Source: a virus
Length of the DNA: 64,000 nt
Virus record (IMG/VR): IMGVR_UViG_3300005096_000005
Coordinates: 1 to 64,000 of that record
Direction: 5' to 3' (one strand)
Positions within the stretch are counted from its first letter, which is position 1; every line of letters starts with the position of its first letter. Position numbers and translations under genes: made by a program. The notes beneath the pieces were generated by a model. It made no database searches. It was not told where the DNA came from and worked only from the letters and a program-made list of their open reading frames with translations. Positions 6,417-24,553 of the stretch are shown piece by piece.

Positions 6417-7862
6417 ATGGCATCAATTCTGGAAAAGATGGGCATGTATGGGCTCCAGTCTCAGGAAGACTTCCTGCTGGCCGGCATGTTGACAGGAGAC
6501 CCTGTGCTTCTGATAGGTACACATGGATCGGGGAAAACATACTTCTGCGAACTGGTAGCAAAAGTTCTCGGGGTTGACTACCAGTGTTATGACGCATCAA
6601 AAGCAATGTTCGAAGACACTCTGGGGTTCCCGAATCCCAAGAGTCTTGTTCAGGGCTCGGTAGACTATATTCCCACACCAATGAGCATCCTGCCAAAAGA
6701 GTTCGTCTTGATTGACGAGATCAGTAGAGCTCACGTGCAGATGCAGAACAAGTGGCTGGAGATTATCAGGTCCCGCCAGATCATGGGAGTAAAGTGCCGC
6801 CGCCTGCGCTGGGTATGGGCAGCCATGAATCCTCTCAGTTATGAAGGCGCTGTACCCCTTGACGAAGCTCTCGCCGGCAGGTTCAGTCTCATTATCATCA
6901 TGCCCGAAGCAAAAGATATGGAAGACGCGGATGCCCTGAGTGTTGTCATGAGCGAGAATGGTGACGATGCTCTGGCGATATCATCATGGGGCGGAATGAA
7001 GAACGAACGTCCATCACTTCCAACGAAAGACCTTAAAGAGCTGCTCGCACACGCGGGGAGCTGCTACAATAGCATAGTAAAAGAGAAGTCTGCAGCGATC
7101 AGCACATATACTGTCCGCCTGATGCGAGCGCTCAGCGAGAAGGGTGTAACCAACCTTGATGGAAGACGTCTCGGCATGATTCGCAGGAACATCATGAGTG
7201 TACTTGCTATACGCAGGGCCAAGAACTCTATAGAAAACGTCGAGAAGACAGTAAAGGAGACTATCCTGAAGAGTCTTCCTAACATAGCCACAGGCCATGA
7301 GATAAGCGCTACAGATGTCCTTACAGCTCACAATCTGGTGAAGGCATCCCTGAACGCAAAGCAGGATGTCAACTATACCATAATGATCGAGCGTGACATG
7401 TCCAGAAAGATATTCCTGGCTATGAACAATGCAAAGCATGTGAATCCGAATACGATGAAAGATATCGTTCAGGCTCTGGTAAGTGAGGACGAATACCTGC
7501 CAGTTGCTATAGCGCTGGCTCCAATTCTGCTTAAGTTCCCACACCACTTCGATATTGAGACGGTTACTCAGGTATCTCGTTGCGTTGCGGAGTTGAGCGG
7601 TCCTGAACAGTTCAACTTCATTCTGGACAAAGGATCCGTTCTTGCGCTCGAAGACTTCATGGCCATTGAAGCTGAATTCAAGAAGACTACTGTCGGAATT
7701 ATGGCGCTGAGACTTGCAGCTCACCTATCTTCAATGTCCGATAATCAGGATCTGATCTCATTCAATAACATTGCGCACGATTGCAAAGAGAAGATAGAAC
7801 ATGCGATATCAAGGTTCAGACCGCTATATGAGGCAATGAAGGCCGGGACATACACAGCATGA
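6417..7862 (+). CDS. MoxR-family AAA+ ATPase
   Basis: GTHGSGKT, LIDEISRA, AAMNP, LDEALAGRF. Confidence 0.9.
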   Translation: MASILEKMGMYGLQSQEDFLLAGMLTGDPVLLIGTHGSGKTYFCELVAKVLGVDYQCYDASKAMFEDTLGFPNPKSLVQGSVDYIPTPMSILPKEFVLIDEISRAHVQMQNKWLEIIRSRQIMGVKCRRLRWVWAAMNPLSYEGAVPLDEALAGRFSLIIIMPEAKDMEDADALSVVMSENGDDALAISSWGGMKNERPSLPTKDLKELLAHAGSCYNSIVKEKSAAISTYTVRLMRALSEKGVTNLDGRRLGMIRRNIMSVLAIRRAKNSIENVEKTVKETILKSLPNIATGHEISATDVLTAHNLVKASLNAKQDVNYTIMIERDMSRKIFLAMNNAKHVNPNTMKDIVQALVSEDEYLPVAIALAPILLKFPHHFDIETVTQVSRCVAELSGPEQFNFILDKGSVLALEDFMAIEAEFKKTTVGIMALRLAAHLSSMSDNQDLISFNNIAHDCKEKIEHAISRFRPLYEAMKAGTYTA

Positions 7863-9351: not shown

Positions 9352-10689
9352 ATGATTCTAATCGATGGTATAACACCGATTCGGATAGTAGATGTACCAG
9401 GGTACAGGCTGAAAGCGGCGGTTACAAAGTCAATGGGGCAACCATTCCTGCTTGATCTAAGAGAAGTTATATCAAAGCGGATAACACCATTACAAGACGA
9501 CACTCAGGCCATAAGCAAGGCAGGGCTAAATGCTATCGAATCCGGTATAATGACCACTCTGACACCGGATAGTGACGAGGATGTATGTGTTGTGTGCTAT
9601 TATTATCCGGAGAATGATGACAGCGGGTTGCGCTCCTTGCTTATCGAACGGGCATGCCTTACTATAGGCCAGGGAATCGGTCAGCTCATTCACGGGTTCA
9701 ATGATCAGAGAAACTTTCTCTATGAATGTTTTCCGGAGCTGAGAGGAAAGATCCGAAGTGGTAGCAACCTACAGGGCGTAAACGCAGTGATTACAAGCCA
9801 GCAGAAGAAACTTGCTGTTCGGAAGTATCTGGCTACTCAAACAACAGAGATGCTGGCTTTGCAAGCAAAGATCGATTCAACCTCTCTCATCGCAGTAAGC
9901 AATGACTTTATAGAGGACAAAGTCGGTGTGGACTCTGAATTCCCATTGCTCAGGCCGGTTACTCTAATGGCATCGAACCAGAAGCCACTGTGTACTGGAT
10001 ATGTTGGCAGTCTCCAGGAACAGTCCTTCACTCATGTTGGCAACGTCCGTGTGTACTTTCCGGACCAGGCGTCCGAATACTATATCTGCATTATAGACAC
10101 TGGAGATGGCGCAGACGGCGGGGGTAGGTTCGACACGAGGGTTATCGAAAGTGTTGAAGAGGTAGAAGATGTCGTAAGGGAGTCTCATGGCGATGTTAAA
10201 CTCTATGCAAATGAGAACGTAAACGATATCGAGAGCCACTACCAGATGCCATCTTTTACAACGACTGTAGGCCGTGCTCAATGCAACTTCATTAAGTCCA
10301 GCAGCACTATTGTGGAAATGAAGGAGGTATGCAAAAGCCTCGGAATCGCCGGATACAGTGGGAAGGATAGAGATCAGCTCACTGAGATGATCGCAGAATT
10401 CCTTACTGTAAACTATGAGAACGAACAGACGCTTTATGGGAACTACATGACCAGGAAGGTATTCGTACGCAACGATGAGGGAAATGTTCCTGATATTGTT
10501 GGAAGAATAAGTGCCGATAGTGTGTATCTGGCAGACCGCGAGTGTATTATTCCAGAGGTCAAGTTGAACACGTGCTATGAGGTAGTAGACATCTTGAATC
10601 CATACGAGGCTGGCTTTCAATATGTGAGTGATGATTATGAGGAGGATTCCAGAAGACTTCGGGAGGCAAACAGACGTGCAACAGCATAA
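9352..10689 (+). CDS. Hypothetical protein with Rho-N-like helix-extension-helix motif
   Basis: TIVEMKEVCKSLGIAGYSGKDRDQL resembles Rho-N/HeH; GGAGG SD. Confidence 0.55.
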   Translation: MILIDGITPIRIVDVPGYRLKAAVTKSMGQPFLLDLREVISKRITPLQDDTQAISKAGLNAIESGIMTTLTPDSDEDVCVVCYYYPENDDSGLRSLLIERACLTIGQGIGQLIHGFNDQRNFLYECFPELRGKIRSGSNLQGVNAVITSQQKKLAVRKYLATQTTEMLALQAKIDSTSLIAVSNDFIEDKVGVDSEFPLLRPVTLMASNQKPLCTGYVGSLQEQSFTHVGNVRVYFPDQASEYYICIIDTGDGADGGGRFDTRVIESVEEVEDVVRESHGDVKLYANENVNDIESHYQMPSFTTTVGRAQCNFIKSSSTIVEMKEVCKSLGIAGYSGKDRDQLTEMIAEFLTVNYENEQTLYGNYMTRKVFVRNDEGNVPDIVGRISADSVYLADRECIIPEVKLNTCYEVVDILNPYEAGFQYVSDDYEEDSRRLREANRRATA

Positions 10690-14571: not shown

Positions 14572-14605
14572 AGGGGGTTGACAGTTGCAACCCTCTGTGT
14601 ATAAT
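14572..14605 (+). promoter_or_regulatory. sigma70-type promoter with overlapping inverted repeat
   Basis: TTGACA (14578-83), 16-nt spacer, TATAAT (14600-05); AGGGGGTTG-N7-CAACCCTCT palindrome over the -35. Confidence 0.75.
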
Positions 14606-14863: not shown

Positions 14864-14944
14864 GGGTTGGCGCAGGGCGGCGCGAGTTTTCAGGGAAACC
14901 AGGGACACCTGAAGACTATCCGGGATCACGACCCGGGCAACCCA
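14864..14944 (+). ncRNA. tRNA-like RNA with extended anticodon arm, no canonical anticodon
   Basis: GGGTTG/CAACCC terminal stem; GCGC/GCGC D-like stem; 10-bp AGTTTTCAGG/CCTGAAGACT; CCGGG-7nt-CCCGG T-like arm. Confidence 0.55.
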
Positions 14945-14950
14945 CTTTCT

Positions 14951-15103
14951 GTCGCACACACGCAGTAAGCGTACAAACATTGGAGTTAGCTCAAGTGGTT
15001 GAGCATCAGCCTATTAAGCTGAAGGTTGCTGGTTCGAGCCCAGCACCCCAAACCAGTCCCGGGGGACATAAAACACCCATCCGCTTACTACACCAGGTGC
15101 GGC
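14951..15103 (+). ncRNA. Module RNA 1: hairpin module clamped around a complete tRNA
   Basis: GTCGCAC/GTGCGGC and AGTAAGCG/CGCTTACT pair across the tRNA; ACCAG/ACAC loop; GCGTACAAAC. Confidence 0.75.
14980..15055 (+). tRNA. tRNA with anticodon ATT (nominally Asn), encoded CCA
   Basis: TTGGAGT/ACCCCAA; TCAGC-CT ATT AA-GCTGA; TTCGAGC; A73; CCA. Confidence 0.75.
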
Positions 15104-15109
15104 ACACAC

Positions 15110-15262
15110 GCCCGCGTAGCTCAGCTGGCTAGAGCACCTCATAGTTTTCTTAGCTTTGAGCACCAGGTACGGTAAATCTCCGGAGACATCGTACATACGC
15201 CCCAGGCTTACAAACTTACCCTTAGGAGGGGGCGGTCGCAGGTTCGAATCCTGTCGCGGGCA
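15110..15262 (+). ncRNA. Module RNA 2: tRNA-like, module inserted in 5' strand of anticodon stem (residual anticodon TAG)
   Basis: GCCCGCG/CGCGGGC; GCTC/GAGC; module 15143-15216; CT TAG GA GGGGG; T arm GCAGG-TTCGAAT-CCTGT. Confidence 0.8.
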
Positions 15263-15270
15263 CTTAACAT

Positions 15271-15344
15271 TGCGAGGTAGAGCAGCAGGTCAGCTCGGAT
15301 GTCTCATAAGCATCAGGTCACGGGTTCGAATCCCGTCCTCGCAA
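15271..15344 (+). tRNA. tRNA-Met (CAT), initiator-like D arm
   Basis: TGCGAGG/CCTCGCA; GAGC/GCTC; GATGT-CT CAT AA-GCATC. Confidence 0.85.
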
Positions 15345-15433
15345 TAGAAACATCGGCAGTTAAAGGGAGGAAGAAAAGACCCGGAGACTGTGAACCTTGA
15401 TAAGTATATACCAGTCCAGTAATTGCTTTTTAT

Positions 15434-15586
15434 GGGCGTACATACACTGTTGGCTTACAAACCTACGTGGGTTCGAATCCCACTGTCTCCTCCATGGTTT
15501 CGACCCGGAGACATGGCCGAGCGGCTCAAGGCACTTGAATGCGGATCAAGCAATGTTTATTACAGCCAGCTCTACCAGGTACGCCC
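15434..15586 (+). ncRNA. Module RNA 3: circularly permuted tRNA-like RNA (anticodon GCG), YrlA-like topology
   Basis: Termini GGGCGTAC/GTACGCCC; T arm + TGTCTCC-T-CCA precede GGAGACA-D arm-anticodon arm. Confidence 0.8.
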
Positions 15587-15661
15587 CTTTGATGATAATA
15601 TCCCTACCATCCCGGATTGAAACGGATGGAGCCATCGCAGACGGCATGTAGTCTGCCATAT

Positions 15662-15813
15662 GTCCTCGTAGCTCAGCTGGAAGAGCGCTTAGTTGTAGTT
15701 TTGCTTACAGCACCAGGTATGGCGAATCTCCGGAGACGTCGTATAGAAGCTGGAAGCATACAAACATTCTCAATTGGTGAGAGAGGTCGGAGGTTCGAAT
15801 CCTCCCGAGGACG
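15662..15813 (+). ncRNA. Module RNA 4: tRNA-like, module at D-arm/anticodon-arm junction
   Basis: GTCCTCG/CGAGGAC; module ~15692-15765; TTCTC-AATTGGT-GAGAG; GGAGG-TTCGAAT-CCTCC. Confidence 0.8.
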
Positions 15814-15884
15814 TTTTCGAAGTGGTGTAGGTGAACCTAACTGCACAGAAGTCCTGTGTTGACAGAAGCCGCACCACTTCACAC

Positions 15885-16018
15885 GGACGAGGTAACTTCG
15901 TAGCTTGTTACACCCGGTACACTTCGGTGTACATACGTTAGAAGCTTACAAACCTGCGGGAAGGTTCCCGCATCAGCACTTAAAGCTGAAGTTTCCGGTT
16001 CAATTCCGGCCTCGTCCA
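15885..16018 (+). ncRNA. Module RNA 5: tRNA-like, module in D-arm region, loop ACTTAAA
   Basis: GGACGAGG/CCTCGTCC; module 15902-15953; TGCGGGAA/TTCCCGCA hairpin; TCAGC/GCTGA arm; CCGG-TTCAATT-CCGG. Confidence 0.75.
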
Positions 16019-16066
16019 CTCTCGTATATGCATTAGGTCCCGAGTACGACCATAAACTACTTATAT

Positions 16067-16201
16067 GCCCAGGAGCCTCGTGGGAGGCCACTGTTTACAG
16101 CTTGGTGCCCCTGATACGGTATCCGTATACCAGCAGGAAGCTTACAAACAACCGCAGTCTTCGGACGTGCGGCACGGAAAGTTCGACTCTTTCCCTGGGC
16201 G
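16067..16201 (+). ncRNA. Module RNA 6: tRNA-like, module replaces anticodon arm, long variable arm
   Basis: GCCCAGG/CCTGGGC; GCCTC/GAGGC; module 16092-16150; CCGCA..TTCG..TGCGG; GAAAG-TTCGACT-CTTTC. Confidence 0.75.
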
Positions 16202-16321
16202 CTTCAGATACAGGACAACTTTGCTGGCATAGTTGTACACAGAAGGTTCACGAGGGAGGGCCAGCGACCTCCGTGATTAAAGTACAGGTGAAACATACTG
16301 TCGCCTGAAGTATCTGCACCT

Positions 16322-16459
16322 GGGGAGGTAGCTCAGTTTAGTTTACACGCTTGATGCGCCCGGTACAGTTTACTGTACACCAGCTTTAGGCTTACAAACA
16401 CTGGTAAGAGCAAAAGTCTTGAAAACTTTGTGTCGTTGGTTCAATTCCAACCCTCCCCA
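16322..16459 (+). ncRNA. Module RNA 7: tRNA-like, module inserted in D loop (anticodon TGA, short variable loop)
   Basis: GGGGAGG/CCTCCCC; GCTC..module 16341-16399..GAGC; AAAGT-CT TGA AA-ACTTT; GTTGG-TTCAATT-CCAAC. Confidence 0.8.
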
Positions 16460-16603
16460 CTTTGCCAACTATCTGCAATAGTAATATTGCAATGTCAACT
16501 CGCTGACATAAAATAGGAGTGTGAACCAGGTACCTGGGGATCAGTCGCAGAGTAGGGCTAAGGCGCGGCACTGCGACGCACAAGTAAAAAGTGGGCGCCA
16601 GAC

Positions 16604-16676
16604 GGGTCCTTAGTTCAGCCGGGAGAACAGCAGCTTTGCAAGCTGAAGGTCCGGGGTTCAAGTCCCCGAGGATCCA
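16604..16676 (+). tRNA. tRNA-Ala (TGC)
   Basis: Cloverleaf, anticodon TGC, G3:U70. Confidence 0.9.
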
Positions 16677-16697
16677 TTCAATCAGTTTTAGCACTAT

Positions 16698-16773
16698 GGA
16701 CTATTAGGCTCAGCGGTAGAGCGCAGGTCCCGACGGGAAGCCTAAGTCCCTGGTTCGAATCCAGGATAGTCCA
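16698..16773 (+). ncRNA. tRNA-like RNA with aberrant anticodon arm
   Basis: GGACTAT/ATAGTCC, normal D and T arms; anticodon arm AGGTCCCGACGGGAAGCCT lacks a 7-nt loop. Confidence 0.65.
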
Positions 16774-16950
16774 CTATGGAAGTACTACCGTTCGCCATTG
16801 ATGAGGAAGGAGAGCCGATTGAACCTCGCAGGAGGCCGCCCAGGTCGTGGGTTAAGCCACCAATAACCCTCCGCAGAAGGGTTCCGAAATCGCCTCATGT
16901 CCCATCAGATGAGGCGCAACGAGTCCCTGAGGTAGCAAGGAGAGTTCAAG

Positions 16951-17241
16951 ATGCCAGTTCCCGAAATGACAACGGAAGTGCATTACGGCGTAGTGAAGAC
17001 ATGTAACCCTACAGTTGAGAAGTTAAGACATGCAGAAAGCCTGTGCTATAACTGCGAGAGGTTTAAGCCTGGCAAAGATCACAATTGTCCGGCTGCGAAT
17101 GACTTCTTCCAGGCAGGACAGAAGTGGCAGATATCCGTTATCATAACGCAATGTCCTACCGATATGTTCATCCCTGCAGAAGAGAACTATTATATTCTGC
17201 AAGAACAATCAGGAGACCCCTTTGGCCTGGATACGCCATAG
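16951..17241 (+). CDS. Cys-rich hypothetical protein
   Basis: AGGAG SD; CYNC...C...CP. Confidence 0.5.
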   Translation: MPVPEMTTEVHYGVVKTCNPTVEKLRHAESLCYNCERFKPGKDHNCPAANDFFQAGQKWQISVIITQCPTDMFIPAEENYYILQEQSGDPFGLDTP

Positions 17242-17244
17242 TAT

Positions 17245-17317
17245 AGGTCGGTAGCTCAACTGGTAGAGCGTCAGTCTCCAAAACTGAAGGTCGCAGGTTC
17301 GATTCCTGTCCGGCCTG
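17245..17317 (+). tRNA. tRNA-Trp (CCA)
   Basis: Cloverleaf, TCAGT-CT CCA AA-ACTGA, G73. Confidence 0.92.
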
Positions 17318-22983: not shown

Positions 22984-23029
22984 TTACCTACTACCAGGGA
23001 CGATAGGATCGTCCAGAAAGAGGTGACAC

Positions 23030-24553
23030 ATGACAGACATGTCAAGAGAAGAAAGAGATTACAGGACACAGATGCTTAATGCAGTCCTGGTTACACCCCA
23101 CAGAGATCGCAAAGGTACCAAGAAAGACACAAGTGCTCACCAGCATACCCGTGAGACATTACTCAGTTACCACAACGAACTCCTGCAGAATGACCCCCTT
23201 TTCTATGGGAAACTCGGATACTGGTATATGCAGAATGGAAGCATTCGGGATCACATGGAAGCCTTTGTAGGCAACATGTTCCTGAGTCCGGTTCCCGAGC
23301 ATCGTGACGCAGCTCACGTGATCGTATCGAAAGGAGATCAGTTTGCTCCTTACCAAATTCCCCGGCTTATTGACTTCGTCGAGAAGGATCAGGGTCGAAA
23401 CATGCCCCGTTGCATGAAAAAGGCCATCCATCGTTGGATCGATCAACTCGAATCAGACACAGCCAGGTTTGATGGTGCCGCATTACATGCTCGCAAGCAT
23501 CTGAAGTACGTTGCCAGAAAAACACGGAGCCACCTGTCTGAAAGGTCCAGGGGTATTCTCTTCACTAAAGAATATCCTGAAGGTTCAGTGTTCGAAGCAC
23601 TGAGACGCATGTCTAATGAGGACATGGAACCGCAGGAAGTCGCAGAGACTATCGTCAAGCATAAGATTCCGCTGAGGATAGCAGGTGCGTATATGAAAGC
23701 GGTTACACCTACTGTCCTCTGCGCAGTAGTTCATAATATGTCGTCCCAGGAACTCATCAACAACGTGGGCTGGCTGCAGGATCGCGGAGCCCTGGACAAT
23801 GAAGACCTCAAAGCTCTGGTCCAGGAAAAGCTGAAGAAGGCAAGGAAAGACAAAAACGTGGCCGCCATGAAAACAAGGACGGCTATCAGTACAGGTCGTG
23901 TCCATGACGAGAGTATCATGGAACAACTCCAGGAAGTAGGAGACGAACAGCTCAAAGCCAAAGGACGCATCCGCAGAGATACACTCCTGTCAATCGACAA
24001 GTCAGGATCAATGTACAATTCAATTCGCCTGGGAGTGGAGCTCGGGTCACTTATTGCCCAGTCACTGGAAGATGGCGCAGCGCTTTATGCGTTCGCGTTC
24101 GACACAGCTCCGTACGAGCTGGGCAACCCGGGGCCAAGAATGTCTGACTGGGAGAAGGCTCTCAAGTTCATCAAAGCAGGCGGAGGGACAGCATGCGGTG
24201 CTCCCACGACAGTCCTTACCAGGAAGGATATTATGGTAGAGAACATCGTCATCATATCTGATGGTGGTGACGGTTGCTCTCCGTTCTTCGACAACGCCTA
24301 CACAGAATACGTGAACAAGACCGGAGCAAAGCCTCTTGTCACGTTCATTGCTATCGATACTGCAGGCAATATACCGGGTAGACAGACACGTCTCGGGAAT
24401 GAGATCGAAGATCTGAAGATTGAACACAGAATCATCGACTTCAAAGGAGACAAGTACAGTCTTCCAGACGTCATTACCATCCTGTCCAGGCCGTCAATGT
24501 TTGATCTCGTTATGGAGATCATGGCTATCGAGCTGCCCAAACGTGCGGCATAA
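23030..24553 (+). CDS. Ro60/TROVE-like protein (helical N-terminal domain + C-terminal vWA)
   Basis: DPLFYGKLGYWY...IRD; MSSQELINNVGWL..RG; IDKSGSM MIDAS, GGTAC, ISDG; size and architecture like Ro60. Confidence 0.75.
   Translation: MTDMSREERDYRTQMLNAVLVTPHRDRKGTKKDTSAHQHTRETLLSYHNELLQNDPLFYGKLGYWYMQNGSIRDHMEAFVGNMFLSPVPEHRDAAHVIVSKGDQFAPYQIPRLIDFVEKDQGRNMPRCMKKAIHRWIDQLESDTARFDGAALHARKHLKYVARKTRSHLSERSRGILFTKEYPEGSVFEALRRMSNEDMEPQEVAETIVKHKIPLRIAGAYMKAVTPTVLCAVVHNMSSQELINNVGWLQDRGALDNEDLKALVQEKLKKARKDKNVAAMKTRTAISTGRVHDESIMEQLQEVGDEQLKAKGRIRRDTLLSIDKSGSMYNSIRLGVELGSLIAQSLEDGAALYAFAFDTAPYELGNPGPRMSDWEKALKFIKAGGGTACGAPTTVLTRKDIMVENIVIISDGGDGCSPFFDNAYTEYVNKTGAKPLVTFIAIDTAGNIPGRQTRLGNEIEDLKIEHRIIDFKGDKYSLPDVITILSRPSMFDLVMEIMAIELPKRAA

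Follow-up and report, generated by a model that had tools for sequence, protein, structure and literature searches.

An RNA array with a rotated tRNA-like unit

We analyzed a window of 64,000 nucleotides that covers positions 1–64,000 of the IMG/VR virus record IMGVR_UViG_3300005096_000005, the whole of which measures 170 kb and is estimated to be 78% complete. The window carries an RNA array that opens with a sigma-70-type promoter (TTGACA-16-TATAAT; 14578–14605, + strand), the sole strong one upstream of the array, and continues with a small open reading frame (ORF), seven tRNA-like units that share one stem, here named the module (14950–16460), about 20 ordinary tRNA genes, and an ORF of 507 aa (23030–24553, + strand). 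The subject of this report is the third of the seven units, 15434–15586 (153 bases). It is not a broken or split tRNA gene; it is probably a YrlA-like tRNA-mimic Y RNA, the partner of the phage's own Ro60-like protein, for which the 507-aa ORF is the proposed gene.

A first-pass annotation had described the unit as a circularly permuted tRNA closed by the module stem, and inspection of the sequence located all of the elements it had listed. Read 5′ to 3′ on the + strand, the unit passes from the module 3′ half through the T arm, the acceptor 3′ strand, T73, CCA, a 12-nt linker, the acceptor 5′ strand, the D arm, and the anticodon arm to the module 5′ half. The end stem of the module (P3) begins with the strand GGGCGTAC (15434–15441), which forms eight Watson–Crick pairs with the 3′-terminal strand GTACGCCC (15579–15586) in both the minimum free energy (MFE) and the centroid folds. 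The alignment places the 5′-side strand of the internal loop, ATAC followed by ACT, at 15442–15448, where relatives have CCGAC, CCTAC, or CCAAC. The inner stem (P1/2) is built from GTTGGCT (15449–15455), which in the folds pairs with AGCCAGC (15564–15570), and is followed by a TAC bulge and AAAC (15456–15462), together the conserved and recurrent family signature TACAAAC.

The tRNA-like body starts with a connector, CTAC, whose C15466 occupies tRNA position 48, and the T arm GTGGG-TTCGAAT-CCCAC (15467–15483; both elements span 15463–15483). The next segment (15484–15494) comprises the acceptor 3′ strand TGTCTCC (15484–15490), the discriminator T73 (15491), and an encoded CCA (15492–15494); the strand forms seven perfect pairs with 15507–15513. 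Between the two strands lies the linker that closes the acceptor stem (15495–15506), a putative RNase P leader that holds a mini-hairpin GGT-TTCG-ACC in the sequence and the folds. The segment 15507–15533, assigned from ARAGORN and the model alignment, contains the acceptor 5′ strand GGAGACA (15507–15513), TG at positions 8–9, the D arm GCCG-AGCGGCTCA-AGGC (15516–15532), and A26. The anticodon-like arm CTTGA-ATGCGGA-TCAAG (15534–15550), evident from sequence and covariation, has U33, GCG, and G37. The last connecting segment (15551–15578) holds, according to the folds, GTTT (15555–15558) opposite AAAC, the inner-stem strand AGCCAGC, and the loop strand TCTACCAG (15571–15578), which aligns with an AACTT or GACTT loop strand in relatives. 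ORFs that overlap the unit all begin with TTG and are taken to be chance.

The rotated fold is conserved and covaries

MFE and centroid structures from RNAfold both hold the end stem, the inner stem, the T arm, and the closed acceptor stem, and the unit alone has a folding z of −2.67. The first-pass annotation had pointed to an upstream GGAGACT (15383–15389) as a competing partner for TGTCTCC; in an RNAfold prediction with a 316-nt context that includes this rival, TGTCTCC still pairs with the downstream GGAGACA, and 15434–15441 still pairs with 15579–15586, in the MFE and centroid structures alike; the inner stem and the T arm persist too. It had also proposed a tRNA search on the de-permuted sequence: once the two halves were exchanged and the module removed, ARAGORN (default settings) called a 76-nt tRNA(GCG).

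A structure-blind script searched for T arms directly followed by a closed hairpin of 7 bp; about 17 loci contained such units, 25 of which were aligned. On this alignment, the six-helix structure is 85.9% paired, compared with 58% after shuffling; the window end stem was misregistered by MAFFT (60% paired) and was fixed by realignment to a covariance model. Among the 34 best matches, realigned by a model that leans towards the structure, 91.4% of cells are paired, compared with 58.7% in shuffled alignments and 35–43% with slid partners. All six helices covary in these 34 units, with double-sided changes in 35 of the 37 pairs. The end stem is 87% paired and has compensatory changes at all eight pairs; the corresponding values are 86% of cells and 8/8 pairs for the inner stem, 96.5% and 7/7 pairs for the acceptor helix, and 96.8% and 5/5 pairs for the anticodon arm, where about 25 of the 34 units have letters. 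The T stem is 99% paired. Signatures of tRNA tertiary structure are present as well: the Levitt 15–48 pair covaries (G–C in 8 and A–U in 16 of 29; Fisher 8.6e-5), and U8, G18G19, and A26 are conserved across the family of rotated units. The linkers of relatives range from tetraloops up to 38 nt.

A first covariance model gave 129 matches (E ≤ 0.01) over 32 sources totaling 672 kb, namely the window and 31 contigs, from phages or bacteria, in which the Ro-like gene has a homologue. A second model, R2, was built from 23 related units from other contigs and contains no window sequence. It recovers 15433–15586 at full length (79.8 bits, E 6e-18), the sole strong match in the window and in the whole 170-kb record, and gave 0 matches on 452 kb of unrelated viral DNA. 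The unit thus folds as described, its helices are conserved and covary, and it belongs to a family tied to a Ro60-like gene; the permuted topology that had been proposed for it is borne out by the folds, the R2 match, and the covariation alike.

These results bear on the idea that the unit is inert debris, left when a module-bearing tRNA gene was duplicated in tandem. A direct repeat of 11 nt, GACCCGGAGAC, is present at 15378–15388 and 15502–15512, and the dimeric-tRNA origin model for YrlA that is cited in 10.1101/312249 would agree with such a history. Yet dozens of distant phages and bacteria share the rotated architecture, every helix shows compensatory changes among them, and none has decayed in 15434–15586. 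Conservation effectively refutes this explanation, to which we attach almost no probability.

The module recurs in several RNA contexts

Six copies of GCWTACAAAC fall within the RNA cluster of the window, and the rest of the 170-kb record holds just one; in the seventh module copy (14969), the sequence is GCGTACAAAC. In the contigs of relatives, TACAAAC is found 3–17 times beside the Ro-like gene, and copies just upstream of this gene number 17 in contig L049, 16 in L052, 6 in L054, and 5 in one bacterial contig. Four module topologies were distinguished in relatives: a hairpin within a tRNA, a split stem that clamps a whole tRNA, a short-loop stem followed by a U-run, and the rotated tRNA. 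The third of these, a split module stem around a short loop and then a U-run, has the classic Y RNA shape.

Individual examples illustrate these contexts. A whole tRNA clamped by module halves lies at 14950–15104 of the window, where the leader and trailer of a tRNA(ATT) with an encoded CCA form the handle; the same topology recurs at 7412–7536 and 8285–8418 of L049 and at 7128–7257 and 7916–8044 of L052. As a closed hairpin, the module is found in five more tRNA-like genes of the window (15113–15266, 15662–15814, 15884–16020, 16068–16206, and 16322–16460), inserted in the D loop, at the 8/9 junction, or before or in the anticodon region. Stand-alone module RNAs of 70–105 nt are present in L049 (4785–4882, 8182–8255, and 9143–9217), L052 (7757–7824 and 8266–8342), and L054 (9182–9287 and 9663–9754); several are followed by a U-run, and in L054 TATAAT lies ahead.

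A reduced form of the module precedes the Ro-like gene itself. The mini-module hairpin ACCAG-GGACGAT-AGG-ATCGTCC-AGAA (22993–23018, + strand) abuts the Shine–Dalgarno sequence of this gene, and a motif–hairpin–motif arrangement in this position was found in six loci: the window, L049 (9958–9990), L052, L074, L078, and L058. In the relatives, in whose loci the Ro-like start codon is at base 10001, the hairpin has the form AACTT-stem-CCAAC. It looks like an autoregulatory binding site of the Ro60-like gene. Because a hairpin of these parts abuts the Shine–Dalgarno sequence, the internal loop and the end stem may well be the protein recognition site. By its position, the loop strand 15442–15448 may be the counterpart of the CGAA-type bulge through which known Y RNAs bind Ro (PMC4201824; PMC12135203).

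The distribution of the module also speaks to the possibility that it is a small self-cleaving or self-splicing element, an intron, which would make the unit a permuted intron–exon arrangement. The module interrupts other tRNA-like genes of the array, in the D loop, at the 8/9 junction, and in the anticodon region, where an insert that is not removed would disable the tRNA. On the other hand, no ribozyme or intron family matches it even at E ≤ 10, its 60–80 nt are too few for group I or group II introns, and it is strictly associated with the Ro60-like gene; copies also stand alone with U-runs or clamp whole tRNAs. An intron is therefore highly improbable, and the earlier view of the module as a structural handle agrees with the stand-alone stem–loop RNAs with U-runs and with the copy in the Ro-like gene leader. 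Hairpin, hammerhead, and hepatitis delta virus-like ribozymes and group I introns were dropped as candidates for the module, with no match found and stand-alone copies in existence. When viral contigs were scanned for exact matches to the module pattern (GTACA-N11-GCTTACAAAC), 44 single matches were returned, all of them in coding sequence and all chance.

The Ro60-like protein

The 507-aa product of 23030–24553 is predicted to consist of a HEAT-repeat ring and a vWA domain with a MIDAS motif. A phmmer search matched it to the Ro60 protein of Thermus phage phiLo (phiRo60; 9KOP/9L5Y) with an E of 4.8e-6 over 343 residues that include the MIDAS motif, and its DKSGS motif is aligned to phiRo60. 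The AlphaFold2 model reached a predicted local distance difference test score (pLDDT) of 88.9 and a predicted template modeling score (pTM) of 0.82. Among the Foldseek matches listed for this model, ranks 1–12 are all Ro60/Rsr proteins, matched at full length with TM-scores (template modeling scores) of 0.58–0.68 (frog, human, Deinococcus, and phiLo); full-length matches include 1yvp, 2nvo, 9nen, and 9kop. The protein belongs to PHROG 850, annotated as "RNA-binding protein". A Pfam search of the protein gave no match, TROVE included, and among 39 homologues the TROVE family was found in 0 and vWA_Ro60 in 13. On the strength of the structural model and these searches, the protein is best described as a member of a divergent Ro60 branch.

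This branch is large, with hundreds of homologues, and at least 581 bacterial species genomes encode it, mostly those of filamentous cyanobacteria. A tblastn search of GenBank phages had as its sole match one 595-kb uncultured phage. The related-locus search found none with the single Ro-like protein, and an alignment of homologues was needed. With R2, 96 matches were found in 59 of 80 bacterial loci that encode the protein branch, all on the strand of the gene and nearly all upstream of it; on the phage side, about 30 contigs proved to contain the module.

In the cyanobacterial contigs L085 (600–5700), L084, L086, and L119, the Ro-like gene and its partner RNAs end large tRNA arrays, which in L085 comprise about 20 tRNAs; this layout mirrors that of the phage.

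Relationship to YrlA and other permuted RNAs

YrlA is a tRNA-mimic Y RNA that is encoded beside Rsr/Ro60, has the order V, T, closed acceptor stem, and D (10.1101/312249), and binds Rsr (Chen et al, 2014; PMC4201824). It has been likened to circularly permuted tRNAs with closed acceptor stems and lacks an anticodon loop and a free CCA (Wang et al, 2018; 10.1101/312249). The YrlA of Mycobacterium smegmatis, whose acceptor stem measures 7 bp, is cleaved by RNase P and acquires a CCA, and both halves remain bound to Rsr (PMC4201824). The first-pass annotation had recognized the YrlA topology in the unit, which indeed agrees with the published description of a permuted-like RNA with a closed acceptor stem (10.1101/312249). 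Like YrlA (RF02553), the unit has end segments predicted to pair in a bulged stem and a body with the order T arm, closed acceptor stem, and D arm; it shares tRNA-type T and D loops, U8, and a covarying 15–48 pair, and it lies on the same strand as a Ro60 homologue. The acceptor stem of 7 bp is that of the M. smegmatis RNA.

Several features set the present family apart from YrlA. The handle differs in sequence, with the TACAAAC signature and no GNCGAA, and the partner is a divergent Ro60 without a Pfam TROVE match. Phage members keep the anticodon arm (15534–15550 in this unit), so that the handle leaves from the variable-arm position and does not replace the anticodon stem, and in a subset of the family CCA is encoded (here 15492–15494) rather than added. 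The anticodon arm and the internal CCA had already been noted as distinguishing the unit from YrlA, and this distinction stands.

A number of observations weigh against a YrlA-like identity. The Rfam YrlA model (gathering threshold 69 bits) has no match on 15400–15620 at E ≤ 10, and its best matches within 14900–17300 (16.5 bits) lie outside the unit; none was found in 17 related phage and bacterial loci either. The published Ro-binding motif GNCGAAN0-1G is absent: the window sequence, GGCGTA-C, departs from it by one mismatch, a T in place of the obligatory A, and its loop strand reads ATAC. The Ro-like gene is on the same strand but 7.4 kb downstream, with the tRNA array in between, whereas it is usually less than 5 kb away in relatives and a Ro60 orthologue within about 4 kb on the same strand is typical of YrlA. 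No promoter- or terminator-like sites were found flanking 15434–15586. Finally, the majority of the phage units without an encoded NCCA have an acceptor stem closed by a tetraloop (GCAA, UUCG, or UCCG) and no CCA. We nevertheless consider the kind of RNA to be one already known, the tRNA-mimic Y RNA, of which the present unit is a more tRNA-like variant, in a family missed by the Rfam YrlA model.

Other Rfam families offered no better description. At E ≤ 10, the unit gave weak, meaningless matches only (a plastid untranslated region on the reverse strand of the T arm, RtT, and the 3′ end of transfer-messenger RNA (tmRNA)). In the two-piece permuted tmRNA (RF04321), a T arm, an acceptor strand, and CCA likewise precede the 5′ acceptor strand, and processing yields two pieces; its tag reading frame and pseudoknots are absent here, the D and anticodon arms are present, and at 14.3 bits the weak match stays well under the threshold of 47.

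Among phages, TROVE proteins have been noted in jumbo phages (PMC7824862), and phiRo60 of the Thermus phage binds phage-encoded Y-like RNAs and host PNPase (PMC12135203). In phiLo, as here, a Ro60 homologue is encoded by the phage, with Y-like RNAs upstream of the gene, and phiRo60 is the closest solved relative by sequence. The phiLo RNAs Yrl1 and Yrl2 were found through a CGAA motif and are described as stem–bulge–stem RNAs, with no tRNA-like body mentioned in the portion of that report available (PMC12135203); compared with this description only, the present unit differs in having such a body. We found no published description of this RNA family in the literature searched. Y RNAs that mimic tRNA are known, and the present work adds a large family that the Rfam YrlA model misses and whose Ro60 branch is missed by Pfam TROVE. 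The family also accounts for tRNA halves that look "broken" when phage tRNA arrays are annotated.

Phage and bacterial members differ in the anticodon arm

In bacterial members of the family, the elements follow the plain YrlA scheme (V, T, closed acceptor stem, D). A full anticodon-like arm (5 bp, 7 nt) is present in 24 of 29 phage units, compared with 2 of 81 bacterial units, and the phage anticodon loops have U33 in 20/24 and a purine at position 37 in 23/24. NCCA follows the acceptor 3′ strand in seven of 32 phage units (chance 1/64 per unit, binomial p 5e-7) and in four of 81 bacterial units. All seven phage NCCA units have G+1 and linkers of 7–16 nt, and 15434–15586 belongs to this subclass. 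The full anticodon arm and the encoded CCA are therefore real and recurrent, yet not universal. The contrast in the anticodon arm, together with the phage-encoded CCA, suggests phage selection for whole-tRNA mimicry, and the phage-specific arm is the best clue to the role of the tRNA body.

Among the bacterial units, a full anticodon arm occurs solely at 1799–1939 of L118 and 5529–5668 of L128. These two units come from contigs of Anaerolineae metagenome-assembled genomes and are also the two best-scoring R2 matches among the bacterial loci. These contigs may be mis-binned phage DNA.

A tRNA-like anticodon loop would also be expected of a permuted pre-tRNA gene. Such genes are known from red and green algae and some archaea, where, as summarized in a citing source, a bulge–helix–bulge is cut by the splicing endonuclease and ordinary tRNAs result (Soma et al, 2007, cited in 10.1101/312249), and the possibility was raised for YrlA by Wang et al (10.1101/312249). 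As in Cyanidioschyzon and some archaea, the module would be excised, the ends ligated to a circle, and the acceptor end opened by RNase P and 3′ processing to yield an ordinary tRNA(GCG). The present unit resembles the algal and archaeal genes, as outlined in that source, in that the 3′ half lies upstream of the 5′ half, a linker closes the acceptor end, and the ends are paired. The normal 76-nt tRNA called on the de-permuted, module-free sequence is in agreement, as are the encoded CCA, G+1, the 7-bp acceptor stem, and the realistic anticodon loops of the family.

The stem itself differs: in this bacterial virus, it is a module that resembles a protein handle and whose sequence is conserved. 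What relatives preserve is this sequence and not a bulge–helix–bulge: there is no conserved 3-4-3 motif at the junction, the basal GTTT/AAAC helix is not kept in relatives, and the module occurs in stand-alone RNAs and an mRNA leader. Most relatives, moreover, have a tetraloop-closed acceptor stem without CCA, nearly all bacterial members lack the anticodon arm, and the tRNA set of the phage already includes tRNA-Arg(ACG). An RtcB ligase and a CCA-adding enzyme were sought in the 170-kb record (78% complete), and neither was found; the missing ligase also counts against this route. No bacterial splicing endonuclease is known that could carry out the excision. Maturation to an ordinary tRNA is thus very unlikely, and a YrlA-like partner of Ro60 remains the preferred interpretation.

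Proposed mechanism

According to this interpretation, the paired ends of the RNA would form the conserved bulged stem, read as a Ro60 handle, and the body between them a complete tRNA fold in the rotated order of T arm, linker-closed acceptor stem, D arm, and anticodon arm. The handle would project at the variable-arm position, like the long arm of class II tRNAs. The pairing of 15434–15441 with 15579–15586 is supported, and the RNA ends at these positions are assumed, since neither a promoter nor a terminator brackets the unit. For the same reason, the RNA is most likely excised from a long transcript that would start at 14578. Ro60 would then bind the handle and present the tRNA body to tRNA-recognizing factors. 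Binding of Ro60 to the module is suggested by their co-occurrence and by the motif in the gene leader, and the body may act as the effector: as a bait or tether for tRNA-binding factors, or possibly as a decoy in a tRNA-centered phage–host conflict.

Processing may add a further step. Because the acceptor stem measures 7 bp in this copy, G+1 is present, and TCCA is encoded, a nick by host RNase P at 15506/15507 is probable, and 3′ exonucleases could trim the upstream piece to the CCA at 15494. The outcome would be a two-piece RNA whose parts stay joined through the acceptor stem, the tRNA core, and the module. Judged by the YrlA precedent and the association of NCCA with G+1, the nick and the trimming together come slightly short of an even chance in this copy. 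With most relatives tetraloop-closed and devoid of CCA, RNase P nicking would be at best a feature of the subclass and not the general mode.

A nicked RNA of this kind, which the first-pass annotation had proposed as a chargeable two-piece tRNA, raises the question of whether, once aminoacylated, it serves the ribosome in translation, its module being accommodated in the manner of a class II variable arm. The cloverleaf is complete, tertiary-pair signatures and an encoded NCCA are present, the handle sits at the sole position that tolerates long arms, and a precedent exists in vivo in the CCA end acquired by M. smegmatis YrlA (PMC4201824). Such a role is at odds with an anticodon that is redundant with the phage tRNA set and with the inability of most family members to expose a CCA end, and a bound Ro60 ring would probably be bulky on the ribosome; we consider it quite unlikely. 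The strongest form of the Ro60 partner model, in which the RNA is a complete, RNase P-nicked, two-piece tRNA that can be aminoacylated while on the Ro60 handle and serves as a charged decoy or bait against host tRNA-targeting defenses, or even in translation, is also unlikely.

Additional observations

The sequence CCGGAGAC occurs four times within 560 nt, at window positions 15180, 15381, 15505, and 15730 (+ strand), out of six occurrences in the window, where 1.7 are expected. The sites fall in the apical loops of the modules 15115–15265 and 15662–15813, in the spacer upstream of the 15434 unit, and at the putative RNase P site. The CCGGAGAC repeats and the GACCCGGAGAC direct repeat could represent a processing signal or a trace of duplication.

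A further tRNA-like gene at 16698–16773 of the window has no ARAGORN call and scores 46.8 bits on the Rfam tRNA model; it contains about four extra anticodon-loop bases (CCCGACGGGAA).

In several loci (the contig of P0019, L049, L052, L045, and L054), the Ro-like gene is followed within a few kb by ThiF/E1-like and Prok-JAB genes. One 163-kb contig also carries a major-vault-protein-like gene (Vault_3, MVP_shoulder) 4 kb downstream of its Ro-like gene.
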